Under the pieces are notes generated by a model. That model made no database searches and was not told the DNA's origin. It worked only from the letters and a program-made list of their open reading frames with translations. Positions 4,548 through 53,445 of a DNA stretch of 64,000 bases are shown in pieces (within the stretch, counting starts at the first letter, position 1; each line of letters starts with the position of its first letter). Both the position numbers and the translations under genes were made by a program. The DNA is from a virus, in IMG/VR virus record IMGVR_UViG_3300023178_000019, positions 34,564 through 98,563 of that record. One strand, given 5' to 3'.

Positions 4548-5297
4548 TTAGCCGATTGTAAATCCGTAACCTACGCCACCAGCAACTTGCTGAATTACAT
4601 CTTGCTCTAGTTTTTCCATTTCTTGCATTGCTTCATTTTTAAGATCATTACCATTAAGGGTTGACCCACCTTGTGGTCCTGCAATAGTAGCAAACTTTGA
4701 ACGTGCTTCGCCTAACATATATTTACAGTTTGCCAAAGTATAATCTTTAATCCACTGCTTTGCTAGATAATCATCAAGTAGTTGCTCGTCTGGACGATAA
4801 TTGTACGCCATGAGCATTAGTGTTTCGTCTGTTCTCGGACGCTGTAATAATGTAAGTTTATGTGTTGTAGGATTCCATTTGAATTCGATGAACGATCCAA
4901 ACATACGTCCTACAAGTTCTTGGTATTGGCTAAACAAATCATATGTTGCTAGTCCTCCCATATTAGATGAACTTAACAGATATGTGTTAGTGTACGCAAG
5001 GTTAAATGGTTCAAACAAAGTGCCGCCGTCTCCGCCGCCTGTTCTTGATCCAATTGATCTACGAAAGATTCTTCGAACTTCAATAACTTCGTTTGGAAGT
5101 GTGTATTCATTTGTATCTTCCATAGTTTCCATAAACAAATACGATTCTTCTACACTGTTATCTGAACGCTGTCTAAATTTAGTTAATGATTTAACTAAAG
5201 CAGTTTCATAATGGATAGGATCTAGTTCGACATCGACCATGCCGCCGCCTAGCATTGCGTGGACGTAGTCAAATATTTCTTGTTTTTGTGTAGCCAT
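4548..5297 (-). CDS. gp13: Neck protein (T4 gp13-like)
   Basis: LGGGMVDVELD at the N-terminus and WIKDYTLA..KYMLGEARSKF...GPQGG..LNG near the C-terminus. Adjacent to gp14/gp15-like genes. Confidence 0.8.
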   Translation of the reverse strand: MATQKQEIFDYVHAMLGGGMVDVELDPIHYETALVKSLTKFRQRSDNSVEESYLFMETMEDTNEYTLPNEVIEVRRIFRRSIGSRTGGGDGGTLFEPFNLAYTNTYLLSSSNMGGLATYDLFSQYQELVGRMFGSFIEFKWNPTTHKLTLLQRPRTDETLMLMAYNYRPDEQLLDDYLAKQWIKDYTLANCKYMLGEARSKFATIAGPQGGSTLNGNDLKNEAMQEMEKLEQDVIQQVAGGVGYGFTIG

Positions 5298-51774: not shown

Positions 51775-51800
51775 AAAAAAGCCCGCACAGTGGCGGGCTC
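51775..51800 (-). terminator. Intrinsic terminator closing the candidate ncRNA
   Basis: Minus strand GAGCCCGC-CACTGT-GCGGGCTTTTTT. Confidence 0.85.
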
Positions 51801-51805
51801 TAAGA

Positions 51806-52022
51806 ATAAGCAAAATAGGTAGGACTCGGTTACACCTACAAGCCGCGGACCAAATACCATTTCATCTCCGCAACAACCTGCTTCCGCTCGGTAGAGCGAT
51901 GTGACACTGCCTGTTTCCAGTACAACGCCTGGGTACCACCCCTAAGCAGTCAAGTTCGACGCTCTGGTAAACGCCTCTTCCTTGCACTATAAACATTGAC
52001 TAGCTAAGTCTTTGTTGCTTAT
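51806..52022 (-). ncRNA. Candidate structured non-coding RNA (~217 nt)
   Basis: GC-rich intergenic block between a sigma70 promoter and a terminator. Its 5' and 3' ends are complementary (AUAAGCAA/UUGCUUAU) and it contains multiple hairpins, including a GAAA tetraloop. Confidence 0.7.
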
Positions 52023-52028
52023 GTTATT

Positions 52029-52056
52029 AATATAACATCTTTATAGTAAAAGTCAA
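52029..52056 (-). promoter_or_regulatory. Sigma70-type promoter for the candidate ncRNA
   Basis: Minus strand TTGACT (52056-52051), 16-nt spacer, extended -10 TG-T-TATATT (hexamer 52034-52029). Predicted +1 near 52022. Confidence 0.7.
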
Positions 52057-52138: not shown

Positions 52139-52210
52139 ATGTGGACAAAACCTAGCTATACTGAAATGCGTTTTGGCTTTGAAGTTACAATGTATGTAAT
52201 GAACAAGTAA
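52139..52210 (+). CDS. pqqA: Pyrroloquinoline quinone precursor peptide PqqA (23 aa)
   Basis: Translates to MWTKPSYTEMRFGFEVTMYVMNK*, with the MW.KP leader, R.G.E and the E15-x3-Y19 core of PqqA. AAGGAG RBS lies 6 nt upstream. Below the ORF-track size cut-off. Confidence 0.93.
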   Translation: MWTKPSYTEMRFGFEVTMYVMNK

Positions 52211-52269: not shown

Positions 52270-53445
52270 TTAGCTAAATGTTACGCCTGCGGCGATATCA
52301 ACTTTACCTAAGTAGTCAGCTGCGTTACCTAGTGATGACGCAGTGTTTGTAAGCTCAACATAACCATAACGTGTCATAAATGATACTGTTGGTTCGAATG
52401 TTGATGGATCTAGTACAACACCTGAGCTCATTAGTGGGATATATGGGCAGTAGAACGCTGCTGCGTCTGACTCGCTTGATCCTTTATAACCAATAAGAAC
52501 TGGTGCAGTATCTGATGCATATGTGTTAACATATACTTTCATTGCGTTGTTCAATGTACCAACCATTTTTGTGTTAGTTGGTGCTTCGAATGTACCTTCT
52601 GTTGTACGAGCGAACGCTGAAGTAGTTGCTGACTGTAGGATTGTTAGCGCGAATGGGCTAACAACTGCCCAGTTACCAGCACCACGTCTTGTACGCTGTG
52701 CAATCAAGTTTGATACTCTGTTGATTTGAACTGCTAGTGCAGCATGTTCGTCACCAACAAAAGTAGCTGTACCTGAAACGGCTGTTTGATCATAAGTTTC
52801 AGTAGCAGCGCCTGCTAGTGAACTTAGTGAGCCTAGTACTTCTTGGTCGATTTCAGCAGTAATCTCTTGAGCAAGTGCTGCCATGATTTCTGCTTCAACG
52901 TCAATACCGTGCTGTGATTGAGCATCTTGTGCCGCTTCGAATGTCCAGCGAGCTGATAGCTTTCTGGTTTTCGCTTCGACAGTTTGTTTCAAGATTTGGA
53001 TTGACATTCTGTTACCAGCCTGTCCTTCAAGTGCTGCTGTTGCCGCTGCGCGGTCAGTTGCTGCATCACCTGAATATCCTTCTGCAATCTTGAACGGTGA
53101 TAGTGCTTCTTCACCAGCAGTAGCTGAAGTGCCACCTGTGCTAGTAAAGTCGTCGCTATAACGTACTCTTAGTGTGTGGATTTGACCCACTGGACCTGTC
53201 ATTGGCTGAACACCAACCAACTCGTTTGCAATAACGGTTGGCATAACACGTCTGATAACTGGTAGGATAACTCTGTTTAGAGTTGCTACATTACCGGCAG
53301 AAGTTGCACCAGCTGTTGCTGATTCTGAAAGATACTTACGAGTATTTTCTAGAGTCGCTTCCATAACAGCTTTCTTGTTGCCTTTTAGGCCTTCAACAAG
53401 TGCAGTCTTAGTGTCCTGCCAGCGACTTTCTAATAGTTCTGACAT
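52270..53445 (-). CDS. gp23: Major capsid protein (T4 gp23-like)
   Basis: VGVQPMTGPVGQI, VEAKTRKLSARWT.E.AQD...HG.D.E.E, EI..EID.E, FYCPYIPL, FMTRYG. Confidence 0.96.
   Translation of the reverse strand: MSELLESRWQDTKTALVEGLKGNKKAVMEATLENTRKYLSESATAGATSAGNVATLNRVILPVIRRVMPTVIANELVGVQPMTGPVGQIHTLRVRYSDDFTSTGGTSATAGEEALSPFKIAEGYSGDAATDRAAATAALEGQAGNRMSIQILKQTVEAKTRKLSARWTFEAAQDAQSQHGIDVEAEIMAALAQEITAEIDQEVLGSLSSLAGAATETYDQTAVSGTATFVGDEHAALAVQINRVSNLIAQRTRRGAGNWAVVSPFALTILQSATTSAFARTTEGTFEAPTNTKMVGTLNNAMKVYVNTYASDTAPVLIGYKGSSESDAAAFYCPYIPLMSSGVVLDPSTFEPTVSFMTRYGYVELTNTASSLGNAADYLGKVDIAAGVTFS

Follow-up and report, generated by a model that had tools for sequence, protein, structure and literature searches.

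The stretch of viral DNA analyzed here in full ("the window," 64,000 nucleotides) carries on its minus strand, behind a gene for a gp23-type major capsid protein, a structured RNA of 217 nt that almost certainly belongs to the manA family (Rfam RF01745). Judged from the signals around it, this RNA is probably made as a free-standing transcript. That it forms multimers in vivo, which is argued by analogy with other family members, is a serious possibility but falls a little short of probable. The whole reading preferred here, a free-standing manA RNA behind an early-type promoter that assembles with itself by loop-loop contacts, is considered rather likely.

The assignment to manA needs to consider the cutoff used for this family. 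A scan of the whole window with Rfam at the gathering thresholds gave no match. In E-value mode, positions 52009 to 51809 were aligned to the manA model over its full length (model positions 1 to 192 of 192), with 49.8 bits and an E value of 1.1e-11, or 3.4e-13 against the 98.5-kb source record, which was judged 28% complete. The RNA was missed by the default scan because its score is below the curated cutoff of 55.2 bits, which is an operational limit and not a biological feature. A copy in the cultured Pelagibacter phage Mosig, 77% identical to the window RNA with many compensatory changes, scored 64 bits and passed the cutoff, as did 9 of 15 sister loci (55.7 to 69.2 bits), which indicates that the subgroup straddles it; the classic manA RNA of Prochlorococcus phage P-SSM2 reached 181.6 bits. 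Covariation supports the manA helices of the window RNA, among them those of the four-way junction P4-P7 and of the hairpins P8 and P9, and the conserved GGUGGU loop (L5) and the ACC-containing loop (L7) are present too. Neither loop varies among the classic copies; in the subgroup their letters were fixed by the search pattern, and they are uninformative there for this reason. The RF01745 match, together with the scores of the Mosig and sister copies, makes the window RNA part of a divergent subgroup within the family, which was first described in 2010. A preliminary description of this DNA, made from the letters alone, had implied that the RNA was new; with the E-value-mode match and sister copies above the cutoff, this part does not hold. 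No RNA other than manA was matched by the flagged RNA in the Rfam scans.

Weinberg et al. 2010 (PMC2864571) described the family from marine metagenomes, T4-like cyanophages, and two gamma-proteobacteria. The alignment of 2010 already holds one copy that is followed by a predicted terminator and a tRNA, so that the free-standing layout of manA is under-appreciated rather than unseen. Helix names follow the supplement of Ren et al. 2026 (bioRxiv 10.64898/2026.07.01.735769), which uses P1, P2, P3a/b, a four-way junction P4-P7, P8a/b, and P9; their mapping onto the window RNA rests on the order of the helices, the sole GNRA loop, and the four-way junction. The features are collected in Table 1.

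Table 1. Features of the manA RNA and of its surroundings in the window, with positions in the direction of transcription
Feature	Position	Strand	Basis
gp23-type major capsid gene	52270-53445	minus	Pfam Gp23, E 3e-99
sigma70-type promoter, TTGACT-16 nt-TATATT with TG extension	52056-52029	minus	Predicted
manA-family RNA, 217 nt, helices P0-P9	52022-51806	minus	RF01745 match and covariation
P0, 5' strand, AUAAGCAA	52022-52015	minus	Pairs with P0 3' strand
P1, 5' hairpin, ACA..GACU-UAGCU-AGUC..UGU	52014-51994	minus	Helices 2-3 covary
P3a/P3b hairpin, CAAG..GGCGUU / AGCGUC..CUUG	51984-51951	minus	Helices 5-6, 95-100% paired
L3, loop of P3, UUUACCAGA	UACCA at 51969-51965	minus	Read in the sequence
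Four-way junction, P4 (A+CUGCUU/AAGCAG+U) around P5, P6, and P7	51950-51876	minus	Covariation
P5 hairpin, GGG-GUGGUA-CCC, loop L5 GUGGUA	51942-51931; UGGUA 51938-51934	minus	Rfam match and covariation
P6, long 11-bp hairpin with bulged A	51929-51903	minus	95.8% paired
L6, GNRA loop of P6, GAAA	51917-51914	minus	GNRA in 63/70 copies
P7 hairpin, UCGCUC/GAGCGG, loop L7 UACC	51899-51884; UACC 51893-51890	minus	100% paired
P8a/P8b hairpin, loop L8 AUGGUA	51874-51842; UGGUA 51859-51855	minus	Helices 11-12
P9 hairpin, GUAGG/CCUAC, 11-nt loop L9 UGUAACCGAGU	51839-51819	minus	Helix 13, 100% paired
P0, 3' strand, UUGCUUAU	51813-51806	minus	Pairs with P0 5' strand
Intrinsic terminator, AGAGCCCGC-CACUGU-GCGGGCUUU with U-run	51801-51772 (hairpin 51801-51778)	minus	-13.2 kcal/mol
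T4-type late-promoter-like motif before the next gene, GATAAATA	51767-51760	minus	Read in the sequence; putative promoter
Freshwater-2 RNA motif (RF02980), leader of the 129-residue ORF	51743-51666	minus	45.3 bits, cutoff 49.9, E 1.4e-5
129-residue ORF after the RNA	51668-51279	minus	ORF call

All elements that the preliminary description had listed, namely the promoter, the RNA of about 217 nt with its closing helix, the terminator, the internal helices from GACU/AGUC through GUAGG/CCUAC, and the two UGGUA and two UACC(A) loops, were found at the positions given for them when the sequence was read and promoter and terminator predictions were made. The hairpin loop L9 adds an ACCG at positions 51830 to 51827 and is thus a fifth loop, with ACC, that was absent from that description. 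Evaluation of the fold needs to consider that the energy of the single sequence was only slightly better than that of its shuffled versions (z of -1.9, with 7 of 200 shuffles as good), which is weak evidence. The GC content of the RNA stretch was 0.48 to 0.50 and that of its flanks 0.27 to 0.39.

Homologues were collected by a loop-based pattern search of IMG/VR, which yielded at least 115 phage contigs, and 70 distinct copies among the matches listed were aligned over the whole RNA. The structure tested comprised 72 base pairs in 13 helices, with partners slid by 1 to 3 columns as controls. In these 70 homologues, 90.4% of the cells paired versus 38 to 48% in the slid controls, 49 of the 72 pairs had changed on both sides, and the covariation score was 0.379 versus about 0.07 for the slid partners; none of 500 shuffles reached the observed values. 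As far as an alignment can tell, covariation strongly and indeed decisively supports the fold, as the preliminary description had proposed to examine; that proposal had also concerned the loop-loop pairs, for which no covariation appeared within the subgroup. P4 was 98.8% paired, with both-side changes in all seven pairs. P0, an extra outer closing helix that joins both ends of the RNA and is absent from the Rfam model, was 86% paired with both-side changes in six of its eight pairs. The outer pairs of P8 covaried strongly and its inner P8a aligned poorly, the inner half of GUUGCGGA/UCCGCGGC being the sole poorly kept stretch of the alignment. All 70 copies had the ACCA of L3, which the search pattern had left free, and the GG of L8 and the CC of L9 were invariant in the subgroup as well.

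The window RNA shares with the classic cyanophage type of manA, represented by P-SSM2 and the cage-forming manA_A0F1, the order of the helices, the alignment to the full-length model, the four-way junction P4-P7, the GGUGGU of L5, the ACC of L7, and a sigma70-type promoter directly upstream. It differs in the closing helix P2, which is AUAG/CUAU in the subgroup but GGGAG/CUCCC in the classic RNAs, in the added outer helix P0, and in the length of P6, which is 26 to 27 nt in the subgroup (27 nt in the window RNA) compared to 9 to 19 nt in the classic cyanophage type. Its loops are rewired as well, with UUUACCAGA in L3, GUGGUA in L5, UACC in L7, AUGGUA in L8, and UGUAACCGAGU in L9: L8 is CUGUA in the classic RNAs, L9 of the subgroup does not possess their UACAG, and the invariant UACCA of L3 is likewise unlike classic manA. 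With the Photobacterium type, on the other hand, the window RNA has in common a long P6 capped by a GNRA loop and an L3 complementary to L8, albeit with UCAGC/GCUGA in the former and UACCA/UGGUA in the latter. P9 has near-identical letters in both when compared by reading (GUAGGU...AGUCCUAC in Table S3 of Ren et al.). The Photobacterium-type copies are chromosomal in a gamma-proteobacterium, whereas the copy in the window is a phage gene.

With refolded RNA of other family members in 10 mM Mg, manA RNAs of less than 200 nt were seen by cryo-EM to form closed RNA-only assemblies in vitro. The pentamer is the building block of all of them, the octamers, the decamers, and an icosahedral cage (T=1, 60 subunits) of about 430 Å (Ren et al. 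2026). The cyanophage-type constructs A0F1 and 67AA used the intermolecular kissing loops L5-L7' and L8-L9', and the Photobacterium-type constructs A28C and A767, which have a longer P6, used L5-L7', L3-L8', and a contact of the GNRA loop L6 with P6' (Ren et al. 2026). In the window RNA, L3 and L8 are complementary over 5 bases and L5 and L7 over 4 to 5, and P6 is long and GNRA-capped, so that the sequence prerequisites of the three-contact network of the Photobacterium type are present. By our own numbering, the two pairs of complementary loops in the preliminary description would correspond to L5/L7 and L3/L8. The multimers joined "hand in hand" by loops, which were proposed there, match the cryo-EM results on other manA members and may by analogy form here too, with the loop partners as candidates.

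In the 75 classic copies collected, the L8-L9 helix was 100% paired and contained one covarying pair (CG in 66, AU in 9 copies); as an alignment-based pairing, it agrees with the structure of Ren et al. Among the 70 subgroup copies, the loops were conserved and none of five candidate pairings showed loop-loop covariation. L8 did change, from U to C in 17 copies and from U to A in 13, and these changes were uncompensated in every candidate partner, which means that the loop partners are not proven. Since UGGUA occurs in both L5 and L8, and UACC in both L3 and L7, the sequence fits more than one choice of partners. A covariation argument that sets the classic L8/L9 loops (CUGUA/UACAG) against the loops of the subgroup position by position fails, because the register shifts by one, and was dropped. 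A pairing UGGU/ACCG between the P8 and P9 loops was kept in only 80% of the copies, and for loops of these sizes a match of three to four bases is likely by chance.

According to the preferred reading of a free-standing, self-assembling RNA, the RNA polymerase of the host would transcribe the RNA from the phage sigma70-type promoter with a start near 52022. The transcript would fold into the closing helix, the 5' hairpin, P3, the four-way junction P4-P7, P8, and P9, and the terminator would release it at about position 51775 as a free transcript of about 250 nt that is not the leader of the next gene; for the latter, a separate late-promoter-like motif and a separate leader motif are present. 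Copies of the RNA may then bind each other by their exposed loops, as suggested by the cryo-EM structures of other family members. In such a network, the UGGUA of L5 would pair with the UACC of L7' of a neighbor, the UACCA of L3 with the UGGUA of L8', and the GAAA tip of the long P6 would contact P6 of a neighbor; the three contacts together could lead to pentamers and, from these, to decamers or larger shells. That an RNA-only shell or ring acts early in infection, be it as a scaffold, sponge, or compartment, and for instance traps a host factor or a small signaling molecule, is a speculative extension by analogy and appears improbable at present.

Alternatively, the RNA may stay a free monomer with intramolecular loop contacts, the compact fold of which binds a small molecule or a protein of the host or the phage as a decoy or sponge. 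This is rather unlikely. It would fit the free-standing layout, and invariant loop letters that do not covary agree with a recognition surface as well as with a kissing interface; a tentative intramolecular "pseudoknot?" was also drawn in manA (Weinberg et al. 2010, PMC2864571). The loop-loop contacts were nevertheless intermolecular in every manA structure with described interfaces (Ren et al. 2026), and no partner protein or ligand is known. The ribozyme and protein-decoy options offered in the preliminary description gained no support, as no evidence for them was found. A T-box-like or RNase P-like reading, with GG loops that bind the CCA ends of tRNAs, was considered on the basis that some copies adjoin tmRNA and tRNA genes, and it was rejected as nothing beyond the loop letters spoke for it.

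The position of the signals around the RNA bears on how it is transcribed. The gp23-type gene ends upstream in a two-way terminator, and the predicted promoter puts the transcript start at about 52022. Of the 67 distinct subgroup copies whose flanks were long enough, 60 had a promoter-like site, TTGAC..TAnnnT, at the corresponding position, and such a site was also seen upstream of the Mosig and P-SSM2 copies. Downstream, the RNA is mostly followed by a terminator in the subgroup but by a start codon in classic manA: a terminator was present within 60 nt in 42 of the 67 distinct subgroup copies (63%) compared to 18 of 70 classic copies (26%). In 35 of the 67 copies, the motif ATAAATA followed the RNA at a distance of no more than 150 nt; 30 of these also possessed the terminator. 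The freshwater-2 motif was above its cutoff (51 to 77 bits) at the same position in nine sister loci. The 129-residue ORF behind it had no match in Pfam or PHROG; its homologues come after the RNA in 28 related loci among the matches listed. The 5'-UTR position catalogued for manA, which is a typical context and not a structural criterion, was thus not found in the window, where the terminator, the late-promoter-like motif, and freshwater-2 all precede the next ORF.

A cis-acting riboswitch or leader that senses a metabolite and controls terminator read-through into the 129-residue gene is improbable at this locus, although the family has been rated cis-regulatory and a probable riboswitch (Weinberg et al. 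2010, PMC2864571). In P-SSM2-type classic copies and in Mosig, the RNA is located 15 to 25 nt ahead of a start codon; such a layout, with an ORF start no more than 60 nt away and no terminator, was seen in 42 of 70 classic copies, and 15 of 67 subgroup copies, Mosig among them, directly precede an ORF in the same manner, which indicates that the family is also used at the 5' ends of mRNAs. In the window, however, the terminator hairpin is wholly outside of the conserved RNA without overlap with P0 or P2, and no alternative pairing with it was found when the window sequence was read. An expression platform competing with the sensing domain was looked for and not found, the terminator being self-contained. 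The subgroup copies contain 32 different terminator hairpin sequences, none of which overlaps the conserved RNA; terminators that vary freely while the RNA remains constant fit a switching platform poorly and, judged by their sequences, look like plain ends of transcription units. Moreover, the next gene possesses its own late-promoter-like motif and the separate freshwater-2 leader, and no ligand of manA was reported in the literature found.

That the locus instead encodes the 44-residue peptide of ORF 51996-51862 is extremely improbable and this gene candidate was rejected: the frame is open in the window with an ATG start but has no evident ribosome-binding site and no match in Pfam and PHROG, 18 of 70 homologues retain the ATG and 14 to 16 of 70 the intact frame, 54 of the 70 copies have an ORF segment with a length that differs modulo 3, and the substitutions keep the base pairs. 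The preliminary description had named conservation of this 44-codon ORF rather than of base pairing as the outcome that would speak against it; the reverse was found, and its claim of a discrete, separately transcribed, structured and non-coding RNA stands as the probable one.

Among other RNAs that join by their loops, the pRNA of phi29, to which the preliminary description had compared the window RNA, is a phage RNA similar to it in size. Its copies form a ring by intermolecular loop-loop pairing, and small podoviruses use it as a component of their DNA-packaging motor. To our knowledge, T4-like phages package their DNA without RNA. The window RNA, unlike that motor part, is preceded by an early-type promoter, and no prohead-RNA family was matched in Rfam scans that covered the window and, at E values up to 10, the region. 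We know of no function for ROOL, GOLLD, and OLE. These are described in Kretsch et al. 2025 (PMC12286853) as natural non-coding RNA-only homo-oligomers and, in the summary given by Ren et al. 2026, as dihedral multimers of several hundred nucleotides. The manA RNAs are smaller (about 200 nt) and built from pentamers, and there is no homology to these larger, dihedral RNAs.

To understand the biological meaning, these data can be combined with the history of the family. Since 2010, manA has been an orphan "riboswitch candidate," and since 2026, it has also been the first short RNA of natural origin for which assembly into an icosahedral cage was observed, albeit in vitro only. Within one large group of giant marine phages, the locus described here and its more than 100 relatives present manA as a separate gene that has a terminator and an early-type promoter to itself and carries an extra helix by which its ends are joined. 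Such a layout argues for a free RNA particle over a gene switch. The gain is modest, as the family was known and the free-standing layout had been glimpsed in the alignment of 2010, but the locus provides natural sequences and the loop pairs L3/L8 and L5/L7 for tests of assembly and function, and Mosig offers a tractable system for this RNA. Should an early RNA shell or ring of the phage prove true, a natural RNA cage would for the first time have a biological role, with a small RNA gene that keeps its place beside the capsid gene.

The carrier is an uncultured giant T4-like marine phage. The capsid protein encoded in the window is closest (67 to 71% identity) to those of giant phages of about 290 to 470 kb, such as Vibrio phage 2.275.O, GAP32, and PA5oct. 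Among capsid-related cultured phages, Vibrio phage 2.275.O, Syn9, and S-PM2 had no manA match. In 76 of 111 loci among the matches listed, the RNA is situated 115 to 840 nt downstream of the gp23 homologue on the same strand, and the two are placed among late genes. In many sister loci, RNA elements are grouped as an island: gp23 is followed by a glutamine riboswitch, then by manA and freshwater-2, and finally by the next gene. The aptamer of this riboswitch (RF01739, 47 to 58 bits) was found between gp23 and manA in the sister contigs L004, L005 (positions 4919 to 4966), L014, L021, L052, and L059. The window carries at this place a pqqA gene on the opposite strand instead, an ORF of 23 residues (52139-52210, plus strand) that matched Pfam PqqA with an E value of 4.5e-12 and 46 bits. 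It possesses its own ribosome-binding site, shares the terminator with gp23, and is 82 to 91% identical in DNA sequence to unannotated stretches of the Methylophilales phages Venkman, MEP301, MEP401, MEP402, and P19250A.

A scan of prokaryotic genome bins for the loop pattern listed 120 matches, almost all of them chance matches in unrelated bacteria. Only two of those listed looked like real copies of the manA subgroup described here, L294 (a contig of a Magnetococcales MAG) and L363, and these may be phage contigs binned with their host. In Mosig, the manA copy is unannotated (L001:3001-3227, corresponding to 108165-108391 of MT647606.1), is preceded by a sigma70-type promoter, and is located 24 nt before a putative rubrerythrin gene. 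Some phage contigs with manA also contain genes for a permuted (alpha-type) tmRNA (L017:5282-5613, L024:6276-6575, and L050:2332-2666), and in one group of sister loci such a tmRNA is immediately followed by manA. In L017, manA starts about 10 nt after the end of the tmRNA and has neither its own promoter nor P0, which suggests that both are co-transcribed.
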